NCBI GenBank assembly: GCA_033763575.1
Contig: JANRKF010000010.1
Location: 13,376 to 77,375 of the forward strand
Reading direction: 5' to 3'
DNA: 64,000 nucleotides
Source of the DNA: Alphaproteobacteria bacterium
GTDB lineage: Bacteria > Pseudomonadota > Alphaproteobacteria > Rickettsiales > SXRF01
Position 1 is the stretch's first letter. The number at the start of each line of letters is the position of its first letter. Shown here one piece after another: positions 12,744 through 57,904 of the stretch. The position numbers and the translations under genes were made by a program. The notes below the pieces were generated by a model, which was not told the DNA's origin, did not search any database, and saw only the letters and a list, made by a program, of their open reading frames with translations.

Positions 12744-12828
12744 AGGCTGCAGGTGTCAGGTGACAGGGGCAAGAAAGCATGTTAGCTTTCACCCTCTTCA
12801 TCCTGACATCTGACACCTGACACCTGAT
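12744..12828. repeat. heptamer-arm palindromic element, AGGTGWC family
   Basis: aggctgc aggtgtc aggtgac aggggca ... tcctgac atctgac acctgac acctgat fills the rpsA-sppA spacer. Confidence 0.82.
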
Positions 12829-25295: not shown

Positions 25296-26324
25296 CTAAA
25301 ACGTCAGGAAGCCCACCGTGTCTTTGACTTCGCGCATGGTGGCGTCGGAGATCGTGCGGGCCTTGTCGGTGCCGCGCTTCAGTATGGCGTCCAGATGCGC
25401 CTGGTCGGCCATCAGTTCGCGCATCTTCGCGGTAATCGGCGAGAGGTGGGCCACTGCCGCCTCGGTCAATTTCTGTTTGAAGGCGGAGAAATTCAGCGCA
25501 TCCACTTCCGAGGCCGCCTGCTCGACCGACTGAGCGGTGAAGGCGGCATACATCGTCAATAAATTCTGAGCTTCCGGGCGGCTCTCATCATTGTAGCTTT
25601 TGCCCTCGACCATGTCCGATTTTGCTTTCCTGAATTTCTGCGCGATGGTGTCGGCATCGTCGGTGAGGCTGATGCGTGAATAATCGGACTCATCGGATTT
25701 GCTCATTTTTTTAGTGCCGTCGCGGAGCGACATGATCCTCGCCGCCGATTTCATAATCACCGGCTCCGGCAGGGGGAAAAATTCCTTCCCGTAATGGCGG
25801 TTGAACGCCCCGGCAATATCGCGTGATAATTCCAGATGCTGTTTCTGGTCTTCGCCCACCGGCACATGGGTGGCTTTGTAGAGAAGGATATCCGCCGCCA
25901 TCAGCACCGGGTAGCCATACAGCCCCAGCACTGCTTTTTCCTTGTCCTTCCCAGCTTTCTCCTTGAACTGCGTCATGCGGTTCAGCCAGCCGAGCGGCGT
26001 TTCGCAGGAGAGAATCCAGTTCAGCTCGGCATGGCCCGAAACCGCCGATTGCGGGAAGATCGCGCATTTTTCGGCGTCGATACCGCAGGCGATATAGGCC
26101 GCCGCCGTTTCGCGCACGGCTTTGCGTAAAGCCGCCGGCTCCTGCGGCAGGGTGATCGCATGCAGGTCGGCCAACATGAAATAGCACTCATACTGGTTTT
26201 GCAGCCCGACCCAATTGCGGATGGCACCCAGATAATTACCCAGATGCAGGTTGCCGGTAGGCTGGACGCCGGAGAGGATTCTCAAGGGCGCAGGAGGCAG
26301 GTGACAGGTGTCGGGTGACATCAT
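25296..26324 (-). CDS. trpS: tryptophan-tRNA ligase
   Basis: SGVQPTGNLHLGNYLGA, YPVLMAADILLY, VPVGEDQ, KMSKS; start may be at 26324, 26321 or a downstream TTG. Confidence 0.96.
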   Translation of the reverse strand: MMSPDTCHLPPAPLRILSGVQPTGNLHLGNYLGAIRNWVGLQNQYECYFMLADLHAITLPQEPAALRKAVRETAAAYIACGIDAEKCAIFPQSAVSGHAELNWILSCETPLGWLNRMTQFKEKAGKDKEKAVLGLYGYPVLMAADILLYKATHVPVGEDQKQHLELSRDIAGAFNRHYGKEFFPLPEPVIMKSAARIMSLRDGTKKMSKSDESDYSRISLTDDADTIAQKFRKAKSDMVEGKSYNDESRPEAQNLLTMYAAFTAQSVEQAASEVDALNFSAFKQKLTEAAVAHLSPITAKMRELMADQAHLDAILKRGTDKARTISDATMREVKDTVGFLTF

Positions 26325-26419
26325 AAAAAAACAATGGTACGGATTAAAGACGGATTTTTATAACGTTTGAAATTGAATAAAGCAATGTCTGTCACCTGCC
26401 ACCTGCCTCCTGCGCCCTT
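26284..26419. repeat. heptamer-arm inverted repeat bracketing the trpS/hemB divergent spacer
   Basis: Arms 26284-26321 and 26385-26419 share 27/28 nt (cacctg[t/c]cacctgcctcctgcgccctt). Confidence 0.88.
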
Positions 26420-30247: not shown

Positions 30248-32824
30248 CTACTTGCGGCGGCCTGCGCCCTGAGGCGCACTCGGCGTCGGCGGCGGTGTTT
30301 CGGGCTGCTGGTCGGTATTTTCGGAAGGGAGTGGTGTTTTCATGCTCGCCGTATTTAAAATATTGGCCAATTTGGCGGCGTCTAGTTTTCCTTCAAGCCC
30401 GGCGAGCTTTGCCGCGTTATTTAATTCTTCGGCGGACACTTTCCCGTCGCGCACTCCGTCCATATTGCCGTCCAGCGCGCCTATCATTCTCTCTCTACGC
30501 GCCGTGCGCTGATCTCGCAATGCCTCGATGACCTGCCCATTTTCATCAACGTCAGCGATCGCATATTTGATTCCGCCAAACATCGAAAGCTGGTTAAGCT
30601 CCTTAGCAATTTCTGCCGCTGCATCCAGCTTTGCCTTATCAGGCGTAATTGCTGCCGAAGCCGCCACTTCCGATTTAGCCTCAACCGGCGCGGCGTCTGC
30701 GGGTCTCATTTCGACTGTTATTGGCTTGGGTTCAGGTTTCGGGCGTGGCGCACTGGCTGCCGCTTCGGGGGCGGGCATTTCCACAGGCGTTACTGCCGGT
30801 TTAGGTGCTAGCCCCAAAAGCGTGCCCACATCTTTTTTACGAGATGTGATGCCCTCACCAGGCTTCAATTTATTCAATTCATCACCCACCTCTGCTATGA
30901 ATTTCTTACCCTCATCGGTTTTAAGAAACTTGGCGCCATCCCCGGCGGAAAAATAAGTCACGGTGGCTTGATAATCCTCTTCCTTGCCAAACCACTGCCC
31001 TTTCATGCCATCAACCAGCACCTTTTTCTGTTTTCTGAGAATTTCATCTGCCGCTGCGGCGGGTTTTTCGACGGCGGGCGCTTGCTGTGGCTTGGCTGTA
31101 GAGGTTGTTTGGCTCTGCTGCATAGTCGCGGCAGGGGCGGCTTGCGCAGGTATCAGCGTATAATACGATTCGGGATCTTTCTTGATAAAATGTTCATATT
31201 CCCATTTCGCATGAGCCGAGACAAGCGGCCCGTTGCCATAGGAAAATTTCTTGGCCTCTTCGCTATGATGACTCCTAAAAGAGTCGCGAATATTAGCTTC
31301 CAGAGTGGCACGGTCTTTATCACTTAATTGAATGCCTTTTGTATCTTGCAGGAATTGGGCGCCGAGCGCCGCATAAGCATTAACCGCTGCATTCATGGCG
31401 CCAACCGGATCTGCACCTTGATATGTGCGCCTCATATGCTCTGTTTCCGCTCTTTTTAACAACACTTCCGCCGCAGCTTCCTGTCGCGCAAATTGCTCTT
31501 TGGGCGTGGGCGGCGCGGCTGGTTCCTGCTTCGGCGCGGCTGTGGCCTTCGGAGCTTGTTTATTACGGAAATCCAGCGCGCTGACCGGAGGCACAGGCGG
31601 CTCTGGCAATTTTTCCGGAGCCACTGCGGACTCTATATGCTGGGGATTACGGATACCATCGCGACTGATAATCTCATCCACCGCGTCATTGACCAGTTGC
31701 TCCTCAGTCCGCAGGACTTGCGGGTGGCGTAAGATTCGATTATGGTTTTGTTCCCCCCTGCCATATTCCAAACTCATTTGCTCATACGCTGGAATCAGAT
31801 CTGAAATCTGCCCGCTGGCCGCACTCTCATGAAAATCGCCATAGGCTTTGCGGAGATTGGCAGCTTTTTCCTCATCACCGGCTTTCAGCGCATCATTAAG
31901 ACGGGTTATCATCTCGTCCTTGATGAGACGGTTGAAATCCCTCTCAGATTGACTAAGCCTATTCATCCGAAGGGCGGCAGGCAGGGAAAGGCCACCAGCT
32001 CCATCAGGCTGCTTGCCATTGTTGTCATATTCGTAAAATTTCGATGCCAAATTTTCCGGAGTGGCAAGCGCTGTCGCTTCCTGCACCCCAATCGCCGCCA
32101 CCGAGTCCCGAATCGCTTTAGAACCGCTCTGTTGCGCCCCAAGAAGCGCTTTCAAGGAAGCGTCATAAGCTTCTTTTTGCGCGGCTTCCTGTTCCAGTGC
32201 TTTGGGAAGCGCGACCGATGCCTCTTCGGCTGCGGTTCTTACAGCCTTCCATCTATCAGCTTCTCTACCAGCGGTGATGTATTGCAGCATAATGTCGCGC
32301 TCGGCGATTTGGTGCCGGTCCAATTGCGCGTCCCATGAACCAGGTGTTGCTTTCGCCGCTCTTTGAAGTCGCCAATCGTATATTCCCGACGTGGTTTCAA
32401 TATTGGCCAAGCCAGGATCCCCTAGCTTTTTCTTCAGCGGTGCATATTTAGGATCCATCATAATTTGCCGTCCGATCTCAGTCTGTCTGGCAACGGCGTC
32501 ATAATACAGTTTGCTTGCTTCTTCGGCGCTTGTGGAAGTCTTGTTTTCCACTTTTAGGCGCTGCTCTGTGGCGGTCGTTAAGGCCTCGCCTGCTTGCTTG
32601 AAAGCAGCACTCGGCCCGGCAACCGATTCCGCATAGGATTTTAAAGCAGCACGCACATCACCCAGTCGTTCGAGTTGATCCGAACTCTCAGCATTGGTGG
32701 CGACAGCATTTTCCAATTCATCAAAAAAATTACTGCCAAGACGAGACAATCGCGCTTGCTCAAAAGCCTCTATTTCAGCTTGCTCGTGTTTGGGATTCGT
32801 TAATTCGGCCATCTCATCCTCCAA
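30248..32824 (-). CDS. large orphan coiled-coil, Ala/Pro-rich protein with EF-hand-like motif
   Basis: 858-aa ORF, RBS ggagg; DGNMDGVRDGKVSAEEL; basic tail GAGRRK. Confidence 0.82.
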   Translation of the reverse strand: MEDEMAELTNPKHEQAEIEAFEQARLSRLGSNFFDELENAVATNAESSDQLERLGDVRAALKSYAESVAGPSAAFKQAGEALTTATEQRLKVENKTSTSAEEASKLYYDAVARQTEIGRQIMMDPKYAPLKKKLGDPGLANIETTSGIYDWRLQRAAKATPGSWDAQLDRHQIAERDIMLQYITAGREADRWKAVRTAAEEASVALPKALEQEAAQKEAYDASLKALLGAQQSGSKAIRDSVAAIGVQEATALATPENLASKFYEYDNNGKQPDGAGGLSLPAALRMNRLSQSERDFNRLIKDEMITRLNDALKAGDEEKAANLRKAYGDFHESAASGQISDLIPAYEQMSLEYGRGEQNHNRILRHPQVLRTEEQLVNDAVDEIISRDGIRNPQHIESAVAPEKLPEPPVPPVSALDFRNKQAPKATAAPKQEPAAPPTPKEQFARQEAAAEVLLKRAETEHMRRTYQGADPVGAMNAAVNAYAALGAQFLQDTKGIQLSDKDRATLEANIRDSFRSHHSEEAKKFSYGNGPLVSAHAKWEYEHFIKKDPESYYTLIPAQAAPAATMQQSQTTSTAKPQQAPAVEKPAAAADEILRKQKKVLVDGMKGQWFGKEEDYQATVTYFSAGDGAKFLKTDEGKKFIAEVGDELNKLKPGEGITSRKKDVGTLLGLAPKPAVTPVEMPAPEAAASAPRPKPEPKPITVEMRPADAAPVEAKSEVAASAAITPDKAKLDAAAEIAKELNQLSMFGGIKYAIADVDENGQVIEALRDQRTARRERMIGALDGNMDGVRDGKVSAEELNNAAKLAGLEGKLDAAKLANILNTASMKTPLPSENTDQQPETPPPTPSAPQGAGRRK

Positions 32825-40869: not shown

Positions 40870-42216
40870 ATGAAAAAATCCCTATTAGCTCCGTCTGTGC
40901 TTGTCACAAGCTTGTTAATATCTCCGTTGTCGGCTCTGGCTGACGATCCTAATGTCAATGCCCGTATACAAAAACTGGAGCAGGAGCTGGCTTTGCTCAA
41001 GCGGCAGGTTGAAGTAAAAGATGAAAAAGATCAGGCGGCGGCAGAAAAAATTGCGGGCGTTGAATTGGGCAGGAAGGGGCTTAAAATTACCTCGCCGGAT
41101 AAAAACTATGAGCTTTCCCTGCGCGGCAATTTCCAGATTGATAATCGCCAGTTTCTGAAGGACAAAAACAGCACGGGTAAAAATGAATTTTTAGCCCGCA
41201 GATTGCGTCCGGTTCTCGAAGCCAGGGCGGGGGATGCGTCTTTCCGCCTGATGCCGGATTTTGCGGGTTCCAGCACCCGCGTGTTTGATGCCCATGCGGA
41301 TTATAAACTTTATGACGAGCTGCAATTCCGCATCGGTAAATTCAAAACGCCGGTGAGCCTGGAGCGGTTGCAATCTCCCGTGGATATGTTGTTCATTGAG
41401 CGTGGTCATCCGAGCAACTTGGCTCCCAGCCGTGATTTTGGGGTTATGGCCTATGGCAACCTGATTCCCGATCAACTTGAATATCAAATAGGCGTATTCA
41501 ACGGCAACCAAGATTTGGGCAATACCGATAGCGATGATGACGACAAAAAAGATTATGTGGCGCGTATTTTTGCGCATCCTTTCCGCAATGCGGATACCGT
41601 GGCGCTGCAAGGTCTTGGCGTTGGCGTGGCGGGCAGTGTGGGCGAGCGTGAGGGCGGCAACGGGAAATCCATCCTCGGCACTTACAAAACACCCGGCCAG
41701 CAGGATTTTTTCCGCTATCGCTCTGATACCTATGCCGATGGCACGCACTGGCGGCTTTATCCGCAGGCATATTGGTATTATGGCAATCTTGGGGTCCTTG
41801 CTGAGTATGCGATTTCCAACCAGAGCGTCACTCGCGGATCCAATCATGGTGAATTACAACACACCGCATGGCAGGTGGAAGGCTCCTATGCGCCCACGGG
41901 GGAGGATATCAACTTCAAGGGCGGCATTAAACCCGCGCAGGATTTTAACCTCAGCAAAGGCGGCATTGGCGCGTGGGAACTGGTGGCGCGGGCGGGCGGT
42001 ACGGATGTGGATAATGGCGCATTCACAAGCTTTGCCGACCGTGCCATTGCTGCAAGCAGCGCGCAAAGCTATGGCGGTGGCATAAACTGGTATTTGAATG
42101 AAAATTTCAAACTGGCTCTTAATTACGAATTCACGACGTTCACAGGCGGCAATGTGGCCGGAACGGATCGTGCGGATGAGCATTTTCTCGTCACCCGTTC
42201 ACAATTTAGATTTTAA
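40870..42216 (+). CDS. OprO/OprP-family anion-selective porin
   Basis: Signal peptide, coiled N-terminus, F..RR.RP, GKFK.PVSLERLQ, WELVAR, GINWYLN, terminal F. Confidence 0.87.
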   Translation: MKKSLLAPSVLVTSLLISPLSALADDPNVNARIQKLEQELALLKRQVEVKDEKDQAAAEKIAGVELGRKGLKITSPDKNYELSLRGNFQIDNRQFLKDKNSTGKNEFLARRLRPVLEARAGDASFRLMPDFAGSSTRVFDAHADYKLYDELQFRIGKFKTPVSLERLQSPVDMLFIERGHPSNLAPSRDFGVMAYGNLIPDQLEYQIGVFNGNQDLGNTDSDDDDKKDYVARIFAHPFRNADTVALQGLGVGVAGSVGEREGGNGKSILGTYKTPGQQDFFRYRSDTYADGTHWRLYPQAYWYYGNLGVLAEYAISNQSVTRGSNHGELQHTAWQVEGSYAPTGEDINFKGGIKPAQDFNLSKGGIGAWELVARAGGTDVDNGAFTSFADRAIAASSAQSYGGGINWYLNENFKLALNYEFTTFTGGNVAGTDRADEHFLVTRSQFRF

Positions 42217-42246
42217 TGCTATAACGATTACCCCAAAGGAGATTTT

Positions 42247-43317
42247 ATGAAATTATTTGATACCGTCATTGCGAGTGTAAGCGAAGCAATCCATCTAACT
42301 ACACCATCCAAAGCCGGATTGCCGCGGAGGCTTTGCCTCCTCGCAATGACAGGATTTTCTTTATTCGCCTTCTCTGCACAAGCGGAGCCACTCGAATTGC
42401 TCAACGTGTCCTATGACCCGACGCGGGAATTCTATCAGGAATATAACACGATGTTCGCCAAACACTGGAAAGAAAAATCCGGGCAAGATATTGTCGTGAA
42501 GCAATCGCATGGCGGCTCCGGCAAGCAGGCGCGTGGCGTGATCGACGGGCTGCAGGCAGATGTAGTCACCCTTGCTCTGGCCTACGACATCGACGCCATT
42601 GCGGAAAGGGCGAAGCTGCTGACGACGGATTGGCAAAGCAAATACCCGAACAACAGCGCGCCCTACACCTCCACCATTGTGTTCCTGGTGAAAAAGGGAA
42701 ATCCGAAGCAGATCAAGGATTGGGATGATTTAGTAAAACCCGGTGTGCAGGTGATTACCCCGAACCCGAAAACCTCCGGCGGCGCACGCTGGAACTACCT
42801 AGCAGCCTATGGCTATGCGCTGAAGAAAAACGGCAATGATGCGGCGAAGGCAGAGGAATTTGTGAAGGAGCTATTTGCCAACGTGCCGGTGCTCGATACC
42901 GGCGCGCGGGGTGCTACCACCACCTTCGTCCAGCGCGGCATCGGCGATGTGCTGCTCGCGTGGGAGAACGAGGCTTTCCTTGCCAAGCAGGAGCTGGGCA
43001 AGGATAAAATCGAGATTGTAGTTCCGTCGCTTTCTATTCTGGCCGAACCGCCAGTCGCCGTGGTGGACAAGGTGGCCGAGAAAAAAGGCACGCTCGCGGC
43101 CGCCCGCGAATATCTGCATTATCTCTACGGCAAAGAGGCGCAGGCATTGGCGGCGAAGCATTATTACCGCCCGTACGATACGGAAGTAGCAACAAAATAT
43201 GCGTCAAAATTCCCGAAGCTGGAACTGCTCACCATCAACGATTTCGGCGGCTGGAAAGAGGCACAGAAAAAACATTTCGACGATGGCGGCATCTTCGACA
43301 AGATCATGCGGAGGTAG
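42247..43317 (+). CDS. sbp: sulfate ABC transporter substrate-binding protein
   Basis: [43 protein letters not shown]. Confidence 0.95.
42265..42350. repeat. 86-bp REP/RPE-like element inside the sbp signal-peptide coding region
   Basis: Perfect 11-bp termini gtcattgcgag / ctcgcaatgac; inner gcaatcc / ggattgc; hairpin ggaggctttgcctcc. Confidence 0.88.
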
Positions 43318-43319
43318 GT

Positions 43320-44870
43320 TGGTGGAGGCTAACGGACAAACTTCGAACTATTTAGACCGATTTCGGGAGTCGTTTGACGAGCTGGAACGCTGGTGGAACC
43401 AGACTTACAGCGATAGTGTGATGTTCGGAAGGAGGAGTTCTAGCAAGTCCAGTAGGGTTGCGGCCTAAGTGTATTGAAGCTGTAGTCGATTCTGCTAATG
43501 TTTCACTCTTATTGGAGATGGTCATGGCATTCGATGGATTAGATATATCTGAAATCACTGAGGCTCACATTACGGCGTTAATTGGAACGCTAGAGAGCCG
43601 TGACCTAGATTTTAAACAGCAAGAATATGGTCGTGCTGACCAAGATAAAAAAGAGTTTGCGGCAGATGTGTCTGCCTTTGCTAATACCATTGGCGGCCAT
43701 TTGCTGATTGGCGTGGCGGAGGAGAATGGCGCTGCTTCAACTACTCCGGGCATCACTGGTGATATAGATACTGAAATTCAGCGGCTAGAAAGCATTGCAC
43801 TTACGGGTATCCAGCCCAGAATTATAGGTTTGCAAATGCGTGCCGTACCAATGGCGGCTGGCAATTCAGTATTGGTAATTCGTATTCCGAAAAGTTGGAA
43901 TTCTCCACACCGAGTAACCCTACAAGGGGTGAATCGTTTTTATTTACGTGCAGGTTCAAGAAGATATGAGCCTGACGTGGATGAGTTGCGCCAATTATTT
44001 GAAGGCGGGAGGACACTATCGCAGCGAATTAGAGATTTTCACAATGAAAGAATTGCGAAGATTGTTGGACACGATACGCCTGTGCCTACCGACAATTCCT
44101 CTGCGCTTGTAATGCATGTCATTCCCTACGCTGCCTTTCTTGGAGGCACTATGCTTGACACGCCAACCTTATCAGGCGCGGCAAACCGCTTTTATCCAAT
44201 GGCTGCAACTGGAATGAACCGACGTGTCAATCTAGAAGGAATAGTTACTTATACTGGAACAGCCGCTCCCCATCCTGCTTACACTCAGGTCTGGAGAAAT
44301 GGGTGTATAGAAGCTGTGCGCGGCTTACTGGTGGTCGAAGGTAGAACTAACGGTGTTAAGGCTGTAGTTCTCAATGAGCTAACGAGAAAATTACTCGGCG
44401 GCATTGACCAATACCTTAAAGGCTTGGCTCATTTAGGCTTTCAGCCGCCTTTTGCAGTACTTGTTACACTTATTGGAGCAAAAGGAGCTATTCTTCACGT
44501 GGGCAATACTTACTTCGATGAACAAGAGCAGTTTGATCGGGATATACTAACACCCAGCGAAATTATTATAGACAAAATTCCTACCACCGATGCTGAAATG
44601 CAGGACATACTAGATCCTATACTGCACCAAATTGCTAATGCAGCAGGGTATGACGCAGCACCTGGAATTTAATACCCAACCGGACTTCTTAGAACTTTTG
44701 TTCGAACTGCCAAAAAGCACCAGCAGCTCTAACGTTGCGCGATTTTAGTGTTGTTACACTCTTCACGCTGACGGAATAATTTAGAACTATCGGAATGTGG
44801 CGCTGAGGCGCAGATTTTCTGGAGTTTTTTGGGGTCTAAAAGAAGTGGTGGAGCATAACGGAGTCGAACC
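43320..44870. mobile_element. integrase-less mini-island at the tRNA-Ala 3' end
   Basis: tggtggag..taacgga....tcgaac at 43320-43348 is a degenerate copy of the tRNA 3' end at 44846-44870; interior is visibly AT-richer. Confidence 0.65.
43524..44672 (+). CDS. Schlafen/AlbA_2-domain protein
   Basis: ESRDLDFK, DVSAFANTIGGHLLIGV, IPKS...PH, FYLRAGS; unrecognised C-terminal domain. Confidence 0.85.
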   Translation: MAFDGLDISEITEAHITALIGTLESRDLDFKQQEYGRADQDKKEFAADVSAFANTIGGHLLIGVAEENGAASTTPGITGDIDTEIQRLESIALTGIQPRIIGLQMRAVPMAAGNSVLVIRIPKSWNSPHRVTLQGVNRFYLRAGSRRYEPDVDELRQLFEGGRTLSQRIRDFHNERIAKIVGHDTPVPTDNSSALVMHVIPYAAFLGGTMLDTPTLSGAANRFYPMAATGMNRRVNLEGIVTYTGTAAPHPAYTQVWRNGCIEAVRGLLVVEGRTNGVKAVVLNELTRKLLGGIDQYLKGLAHLGFQPPFAVLVTLIGAKGAILHVGNTYFDEQEQFDRDILTPSEIIIDKIPTTDAEMQDILDPILHQIANAAGYDAAPGI

Positions 44871-57817: not shown

Positions 57818-57904
57818 TTTGGTTTTTAGTCTTTAGTCGTTAGTCTTTGGTCTTTGTCGCTAGAAACTAACGACCAAGGACCGAAGCCCCATGACCAAGG
57901 ACCC
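57818..57904. repeat. heptamer-arm element (TTWGTCT family) at the rplS-leuC junction
   Basis: tttagtc tttagtc gttagtc tttggtc ... actaacg accaagg accgaag ... accaagg. Confidence 0.8.

Follow-up and report, generated by a model that had tools for sequence, protein, structure and literature searches.

In-frame palindromic repeats are already known from two groups, the Rickettsia palindromic elements (RPEs) and the intragenic copies of repetitive extragenic palindromes (REPs). They have been known in Rickettsia for 25 years; their effects on the host proteins are mostly unexplored, and copies at N termini have been set aside as probable errors of annotation. The RPEs (RPE-1 to RPE-10; Ogata et al. 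2000, 2002) are considered here as they are related in PMC10969869 and PMC3733652. The CGTC-tagged REP superfamily, to which RPE-4 and RPE-6 of Rickettsia conorii and dRS3 of Neisseria belong, is characterized by an unpaired terminal tag (CGTC, or TGTC/CCTC), an 8-9-bp stem starting with AT, a 4-5-nt loop and a 3-bp tail, mostly CCA (PMC3733652). N-terminal REPs were noted in that study but judged mostly extragenic, and signal peptides are unmentioned in it (Di Nocera et al. 2013, PMC3733652). A third related system comprises the Ssn GIY-YIG single-strand nucleases, which cut their single-stranded repeats site-specifically, with their flanking NTS/SRM hairpins (Chenal et al. 2025, PMC11893778). 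Here we describe a palindromic element of 86 bp that lies within sbp, the gene for a sulfate-binding protein, in a 64,000-nt stretch (the window, C10:13376-77375) of a draft alphaproteobacterial genome (G000; 1.94 Mb, 55.6% G+C, 35 contigs). Judging from the names carried by homologues, its relatives are uncultured Rickettsiales-like Alphaproteobacteria. Positions without a prefix are those of the window.

Our main reading, to which we give a probability of roughly 70%, is that a miniature element was inserted in frame into the sbp leader, is translated from the ATG at 42247, and would supply an arginine pair and part of the hydrophobic core for Sec export of the protein. The features of the locus on which this reading is built are as follows.

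42235..42241, forward strand: Shine-Dalgarno (SD) sequence AAAGGAG, 5 nt 5' of the ATG at 42247, with an anti-SD duplex of -8.7 kcal/mol; the SDs of orthologues are at the same place.
42247-43317, forward strand: sbp open reading frame (ORF) of 356 aa, matching Pfam SBP_bac_11 (sulfate/solute-binding protein) at 9.8e-38.
42247..42264, forward strand: ancestral start with the first six codons (MKLFDT), what is left of the native n-region, as judged from the leader starts of orthologues.
42265..42350, no strand assigned: palindromic element of 86 bp, with tag bases at 42264 and 42351, recognized by its ends, fold, family and tag.
42265..42296, forward strand: left (A-type) arm of the element, GTCATTGCGAGTGTAAGCGAAGCAATCCATCT (nhmmer arm match C10:55640-55669, E 1.5e-5).
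42314..42350, reverse strand: right (B-type) arm of the element (nhmmer arm match C10:55725-55691, E 2.3e-5).
42352..42384, forward strand: remainder of the native leader, 11 residues closing with the AQA signal peptidase I site, by comparison with the P0003 (...AGFAFSAQA/AP) and P0002 (...ANAQA/EP) leaders.
42385..43317, forward strand: mature sulfate/thiosulfate-binding protein, intact, the sole copy in the genome.

A preliminary description of the locus had called the element REP-like, and its limits, fold, tag and family all agree with that view. Its ends are perfect, with the 11-nt GTCATTGCGAG (42265-42275, forward strand) facing its exact reverse complement CTCGCAATGAC (42340-42350), and these two are the sole perfect matches to GTCATTGCGAG in the window. 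A match with one mismatch at 30514 was discarded as a chance occurrence, at least three hits being obtained in 24 of 100 shuffles. As RNA, the element folds at -38.2 kcal/mol (z = -5.3), and none of 200 shuffles was equally stable. With one tag base on each side, the extended unit reads YGTCATTGCGAG...CTCGCAATGACR and covers 42264-42351 in sbp, where the tags are C at 42264 and A, in place of G, at 42351. In the sbp copy, the left arm is A-type and the right arm B-type; the latter encodes 13 residues in the sbp frame, contains a nested GGAGGC/GCCTCC mini-hairpin and carries both candidate internal starts, TTG 42319 and ATG 42346. Eighteen nt separate the start codon at 42247 from the element, which is crossed in frame by 29 codons (42265-42351), such that a frame-preserving deletion removes 87 nt. 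The ORF thus reads MKLFDT and then the insert, just as first described, with 29 encoded residues beginning six residues past the Sbp start.

The sbp palindrome is a member of a repeat family and not a chance palindrome. Searching the whole genome for both ends yielded 38 paired copies of 67-119 bp, and an arm-profile search with nhmmer yielded 82 arms, which form 40 pairs, all of them inverted, and leave two solo arms. Of the 40 elements, 39 are miniature, and a single long copy contains a nuclease gene. Among 76 ends, GTC is preceded by C in 55 and by T in 19 (74/76; G or A after GAC on the other side), which defines the CGTC/TGTC tag. There are two types of arms, A-type (...GAGCGnnGCGAAGCAATCCA) and B-type (...GAGGAGGCnnAGCCGACGnGGCAATCCA), and the arm termini, GCAATCCA / TGGATTGC, display the CCA-tail feature. 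Taken as DNA, a single arm has only a 5-bp ATTGC/GCAAT stem with a 13-nt loop (-2.1 to -2.7 kcal/mol, versus -9.0 kcal/mol for the Neisseria NTS), and the strong pairing is that of arm against arm. The flanks are rich in AT, at 62% overall and 70% at the leader sites described below, compared with 44% for the genome. With respect to the features of miniature inverted-repeat transposable elements (MITEs), the inverted ends are perfect over 11 bp, no target-site duplication was seen among 38 copies, and the long relative has a nuclease and no transposase. Rfam returned no match at E <= 1 in a scan of 42100-42500, and no match at E <= 10 was found in NCBIfam for five element-encoded peptides. As we take NCBIfam to include RPE-domain models, the element was not classed as an RPE because of this lack of NCBIfam matches.

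Copies with exact ends were found in 20 of 41 relatives of the same order, in numbers ranging from 0 to 35 per genome and with a patchy distribution, the family being abundant in G013, G014, G024 and G031; the reversed-pattern control gave no match across the 41 genomes. Well beyond the order, the arm sequence is present in Bradyrhizobium, where it is abundant, as it is in Sphingomonadales, and in Micavibrio, Rickettsiales, Legionellales and Coxiellaceae metagenome-assembled genomes (MAGs), Bacteroidota, Melainabacteria and Parcubacteria. Some arms harbour a nested second hairpin (CCCCGCACTTGTTGCGGGG), at C7:48880-48919, C30:6808, C33:129847 and C33:89420, i.e. one repeat family inside another. 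The strongest inverted repeats of the window are of a different nature: they are inverted arrays of 7-base units at 26284-26419, 12750-12826, 56884-56954 and 57829-57881, of the AGGTGAC/CAGGTGA and GTCTTTG/GTCATGG types, from families unrelated to the sbp element.

Whether the element is translated depends on where sbp starts. The gene upstream provides a landmark for this comparison.

40870..42216, forward strand: Porin O/P gene (Pfam Porin_O_P, 2.7e-32), directly 5' of sbp.

The porin-sbp order, with sbp starting soon past the porin stop, is common to relatives. A porin end of the ...AQFRF* type followed by an SD and an ATG is present in L003, L009, L012, L017 and L020, and in the relatives with this gene order, sbp starts 17-30 nt past the porin stop, with an SD. 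The orthologous proteins begin with MKLFKT (L012), MKLLKT (L009) or MKLNKL (P0003 and P0016; 82-83% identical). The insert of G000 lies downstream of this orthologous start, and it is absent from sbp in both same-genus genomes. Because its ends are perfect and these two genomes lack it, the insertion in sbp appears to be young. The protein database contained no Sbp relative closer than ~84% identity, and hence no allele with an empty site was recovered.

The ATG at 42247 is outside the hairpin and has the arrangement SD AAAGGAG-N5-ATG. Initiation at this codon is favoured because of the orthologous start and SD upstream of the element, the better initiation signals and the in-frame readthrough. 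An alternative is that translation starts at the ATG provided by the right end of the element, at 42346, what precedes it being 5' leader RNA, possibly regulatory. It is at this codon that the public gene call (P0001, 323 aa) begins, with a 13-residue leader as a result, and many N-terminal REPs have been cautioned to be possibly extragenic (Di Nocera et al. 2013, PMC3733652). An ATG at an element end also seems to serve as the start of Aat (leucyl/phenylalanyl-tRNA protein transferase; C22:27502-27593), in which no in-frame start exists upstream of the element at C22:27502 and the Pfam domain begins 7 residues past the end ATG. However, the outer stem sequesters ATG 42346 completely (0% unpaired in the ensemble), and the only nearby GGAGG is 15 nt away and itself paired in the nested mini-hairpin. 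The leader that it would yield has no positive charge and an uncharged run of 10 residues, outside the range of the orthologues, and cytochrome c1 has a GTG as the corresponding end codon, such that a start at the element end would leave no core. Moreover, the ancestral SD and ATG are intact and in frame 99 nt 5' of ATG 42346, and therefore the long precursor should be made in any case. We consider a start at 42346 unlikely, and the public call probably truncates Sbp to a leader unable to work. The preliminary description had named such a start as the finding that would overturn its proposal; it is disfavoured by these observations, the public call notwithstanding.

A start at TTG 42319, with the start codon, the n-region and half of the core all coming from the element, is very improbable. 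It would generate a 22-residue leader with ideal signal-peptide proportions (charge of +2 and a 15-residue run), but this codon has no SD (duplex of -2.6 kcal/mol) and is 0% unpaired, and as a weak start, it would be dominated by the strong in-frame start upstream. Initiation at ATG 42247 therefore remains the favoured hypothesis for what follows.

We compared the Sbp leader with those of ten orthologues using simple measures of length, charge and hydropathy. In the orthologous leaders, 12-20 uncharged residues in a row precede the c-region, the net charge just upstream is +1 or +2, and the cut follows AQA, AHA or similar. The three forms of the leader in G000 gave the following values.

Full leader with the element: uncharged run of 15, net charge +2 (the run follows PRR).
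Precise deletion of the element: uncharged run of 9, net charge 0 (the Lys is cancelled by an Asp, where orthologues have Lys).
Start at ATG 42346: uncharged run of 10, net charge 0.

The full leader of 46 residues consists, in its C-terminal part, of RR and LCLLAMT from the element, GFSLFAFS from the native sequence, and AQA. The 3' arm thus encodes the arginine pair and 7 of the 15 uncharged residues ahead of AQA, as had been proposed. The deletion leaves 17 leader residues, also as proposed, and only the element-containing form falls within the range of the orthologues. Likewise, the features of a Sec signal peptide cleaved by signal peptidase I, positive n-region charge, hydrophobic core (about 7-15 residues or more), and small residues at -3 and -1, are present together only with the element, not after its deletion nor from ATG 42346. 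We infer initiation at 42247, Sec export, and dependence of this export on the insert from these comparisons. The arginine pair raised the question of the Tat pathway, which was set aside, as LPRRLCLL does not have the S/T-R-R-x-F-L-K context known in general for Tat substrates.

The element might instead be translated and yet be a neutral or slightly harmful passenger, export being equal without it and nothing having been co-opted. We find this somewhat doubtful. No sequence adaptation is visible, the insertion is young by the criteria above, and the residual 17-residue leader resembles the short leader of P0003. Nevertheless, in this residual leader the uncharged run is only 9 residues long and the sole Lys is offset by an Asp where orthologues carry Lys (MKLFKT), and little or no native core is left in three other hosts of the family, cytochrome c1, a redoxin and the C21:38806 protein. 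RRLCLLAMT is the default reading of a B-type arm in that frame and is also encoded by the FliP copy; the element therefore appears to have been pre-adapted to its role rather than adapted afterwards. The preliminary description regarded it as exapted as part of a signal peptide: its place within the leader and its fit with the orthologue metrics hold, but the term overstates the adaptation. Native parts of the leaders seem to have decayed since, as suggested by the shortened core of Sbp, the lost core of cytochrome c1 and the replacement of Lys by Asp in MKLFDT, and such decay would make the insert indispensable.

It is also scarcely probable that the insertion disabled export and that sbp is becoming a pseudogene. 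The genome is small and Rickettsiales-like (1.94 Mb), and cysTWA no longer follow sbp. However, sbp has kept an intact ORF without stops, 80% identical to the same-genus orthologue, its nearest, and it is the only sbp match in the whole genome. Intact cysT and cysW are found on another contig, away from sbp (C11:85508-87063), and the same kind of insert is present in indispensable genes, including those of cytochrome c1 and CcmH. With a single sbp and with both cysT and cysW in the genome, the sulfate transporter is probably still used, and Sbp is probably still needed in the periplasm. Another copy of the element (C11:83169-83258) lies 2.2 kb upstream of cysT and cysW. In G000, sbp is followed by a gene for a 404-aa protein with a Schlafen/AlbA_2 domain (43458-44672), where at least one relative (L003) has cysT and cysW.

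The translated insertion that we favour for sbp is part of a genome-wide pattern, and this pattern is the strongest argument for it. Among the 39 miniature copies, 17 are in frame within genes, and 10 of these are in the N-terminal leader or the first membrane segment of exported or membrane proteins. The hosts are as follows.

Ten leader hosts: Sbp, cytochrome c1, CcmH, FliP, CpaC secretin, a periplasmic redoxin, an S33-hydrolase lipoprotein, two large membrane proteins and one unknown secreted protein.
Seven cytoplasmic-enzyme hosts: ThiC, TruB, AlaRS, NadC, a MiaB-like enzyme, agmatine deiminase and UDG.

Pfam domains span the inserts in ThiC, NadC and agmatine deiminase, and TruB, AlaRS, the MiaB-like enzyme and UDG are intact as well. 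Two frames are open at the right end of the element, LAMT and RND, the third one having a stop. All ten leader copies exit through ...LAMT or ...LAVT, versus the hydrophilic ...RND in six of the seven cytoplasmic copies (ThiC, TruB, AlaRS, NadC, the MiaB-like enzyme and agmatine deiminase; Fisher p = 5.7e-4). Read in the LAMT frame, each arm specifies basic residues and then a hydrophobic stretch of 8-12 residues with LAMT at its end, plus an ATG. As both arm types encode basic and then hydrophobic residues in this frame, it would be the only one to survive in leaders. Leaders cover no more than a few percent of the genome and contain ten of ~40 copies, an enrichment (p about 4e-8), the background being an assumed, generous 400 exported genes x 120 nt and not a measured value.

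Because the LAMT frame also puts the end ATG in frame, we looked for native starts upstream. An in-frame ATG is present 2-10 codons upstream of nine of the ten leader copies, as against 2 of 42 orientation-instances of non-coding copies (p = 1.4e-7). It is typically in an MK.., MKK.. or MKY.. context, and its SD is clearly better than that of the end ATG in seven of the nine cases. Several observations weigh against translation through the element and a role in export. The frame bias taken alone fits both translated-through and start-donated copies, and the element seems to donate the start codon of the cytoplasmic aat. In sbp, the public call begins inside the element, the -38 kcal/mol hairpin 18 nt past the start codon could reduce expression, and a Sec leader of 46 residues is unusually long. 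The leader assessment itself is limited to the simple measures given above.

Cytochrome c1 serves as a natural control for a core supplied by the repeat. Its orthologues (n=13) have 20-24-aa leaders composed of MKK, a 12-15-residue core and AxA. Here the leader reads MKKEMIT / SLRVKRSNPAKKIWIAASLALLAVT / TLEAHA; once the element is removed, what remains is MKKEMITTLEAHA, whose maximum hydropathy over 8 residues is 0.49, versus 2.6 with the element. The element end codon, a GTG, has no SD. Since the haem domain must cross the membrane and no other core remains, the element-encoded IWIAASLALLAVT must, on this evidence, be the predicted hydrophobic core. The redoxin and the C21:38806 protein resemble this case. 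The family is thus apparently translated in leaders of G000, and it appears to have taken over the core in at least one of them.

To extend these observations, 201 genomes of the order were scanned for ATGAAR-(3-24 nt)-GTCATTGCGAG, one locus per genome being sampled. G000 had the most matches (8), and the 29 sampled loci from other genomes contained one convincing in-frame leader insertion, L038. This locus (G074:C30:1934-1955 region), from another family of the order, codes for MKFS / SLRASVEREAIHLYGSPRALWALAMT / ATCAVFFAFPLLAADL... in a 127-aa ORF and represents an independent insertion. It is possible, and we propose it only tentatively, that the repeat family constitutes a portable signal-peptide module, whose copies, on landing in AT-rich gene starts, could extend, replace or possibly create export signals. 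Some of the cytoplasmic hosts have other peculiarities. AlaRS, the host of C30:6808-6899, has an extra in-frame insert of another CGTC family (CHPGEGRDPRLSTSKPPDMDPGLRRDD), the MiaB-like gene that hosts C33:129847-129938 has a C-terminal ...DSRLRGND from another CGTC family, and the ThiC ORF finishes with an odd tail rich in Gly and Pro.

The following scenario can be proposed for sbp. A nuclease-less miniature copy would have inserted into the AT-rich 5' end of the gene, between the codons of the n-region and those of the h-region, with the frame kept (87 nt). A preference for AT-rich targets would include the Lys-rich first codons of signal peptides in a genome of 56% G+C. Ribosomes would initiate at the ancestral SD and ATG (42247) and pass through the hairpin, to produce a 46-residue signal peptide in which the first arm and the loop form a long, harmless N-terminal extension. 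The second arm would give two arginines beside the core and LCLLAMT, the first seven residues of the 15-residue core, which the native GFSLFAFS would complete. After Sec export of the precursor, cleavage by signal peptidase I following AQA would remove every element-encoded residue. As all of them are removed, leaders may tolerate such inserts and act as a safe harbour.

The origin of the family may be traced to the long copy, C35:125877-126229 (353 bp), which has a gene for a 99-aa GIY-YIG protein between both arms (C35:125915-126211; Pfam GIY-YIG, 2.4e-16), with a GTG start within an arm. An unrelated Pseudomonadota MAG (L112:2144-2588) has a homologue, 59% identical, enclosed by the same ends. 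G000 has four other small GIY-YIG paralogues, each with its own flanking CGTC/TGTC hairpins. A PDB sequence search with the C35 protein gave no match. The C35 element is the probable parent form of the miniature copies. Since long copies of the family enclose an Ssn-like GIY-YIG gene, the sbp copy appears to be a miniature, nuclease-less derivative of an Ssn-type cassette, and to belong to a divergent branch of the CGTC-tagged repeats. This link suggests a route for the spread of the repeat. Two other small GIY-YIG genes, C24:134839-135108 and C15:39286-39540, each with CGTC/TGTC hairpins of its own on its flanks, are bracketed by long direct duplications of the 5' end of the downstream host gene, one of ~45 nt that encodes MTEQNFDVVVIGGGP and the other of 35 nt with an SD and ATGAAAAAAGAAACATTGCT. 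Because the insert is bracketed by the duplicated host 5' end, insertion at these sites appears to regenerate the start of the host gene.

If the tentative reading of the family as a portable module is correct, nuclease-associated palindromic repeats would recurrently bring about the turnover of signal peptides in gene-dense genomes, also outside G000. The signal peptide, which is cleaved and tolerant in sequence, may harbour selfish DNA and allow it to assume a cellular function. The family follows a clear rule here, with the hydrophilic frame in cytoplasmic enzymes, and the charge-plus-core frame, a few codons past the native start, in exported proteins. Automatic calls of start codons would then be biased at such genes. 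Fusions of leaders to a reporter, with and without the repeat, offer a simple testable system.

Our searches of the literature found no paper that ties REP, RPE or MITE elements to signal peptides, and no description of signal-peptide copies of RPEs. Many features of the sbp family are those of the CGTC-tagged REPs (PMC3733652), including the terminal CGTC/TGTC tag, a stem starting with AT, a tail of CCA, and a layout as inverted dimers whose spacer is 20-100 bp long. In both cases, Alphaproteobacteria predominate, frequent intragenic copies that encode 20-30 residues are found in truB and tRNA synthetase genes, and no transposase is known. However, the single arm of the sbp family has a 5-bp stem and a 13-nt loop, rather than 8-9 bp and 4-5 nt, and its peptides (VIAS.., SLR.., RHCE.. 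/ ..LAMT, ..RND) are absent from Additional file 3 of PMC3733652. As with the Ssn nucleases and NTS (PMC11893778), a small single-domain GIY-YIG gene (cd10448-type in the Ssn cassettes) lies between repeats, at the level of the family (C35, L112) and not in the sbp copy, and the arm starts with CGTCAT and finishes with AATCC, like NTS. Identity with the canonical SRM was rejected, as none of the 76 arms fits the published degenerate pattern, HGTCWYN(0-2)YYVSBRHN(0-5)WNVSBRGN(0-2)RNCYNB, which matches 76 other sites of the genome. The topic of the Ssn work (PMC11893778) is transformation, unlike the coding-sequence insertions dealt with here. Like the RPEs, as far as the accounts cited at the outset describe them, the sbp family consists of palindromic repeats found in frame in functional genes at high frequency (here 17/39 miniature copies) in a small alphaproteobacterial genome. 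It differs from the RPEs of those same accounts in that it is shorter (67-119 bp) and has a quarter of its copies in signal peptides, and its peptides have no sequence match to the NCBIfam models. Lastly, a comparison can be made with the leaders of autotransporters, which are extended Sec signal peptides with an N-terminal extension ahead of an ordinary n-h-c signal. The Sbp leader is similarly composed of a long extension that precedes an ordinary n-h-c signal, but unlike those of autotransporters, its extension and part of its core come from a mobile repeat and are species-specific.

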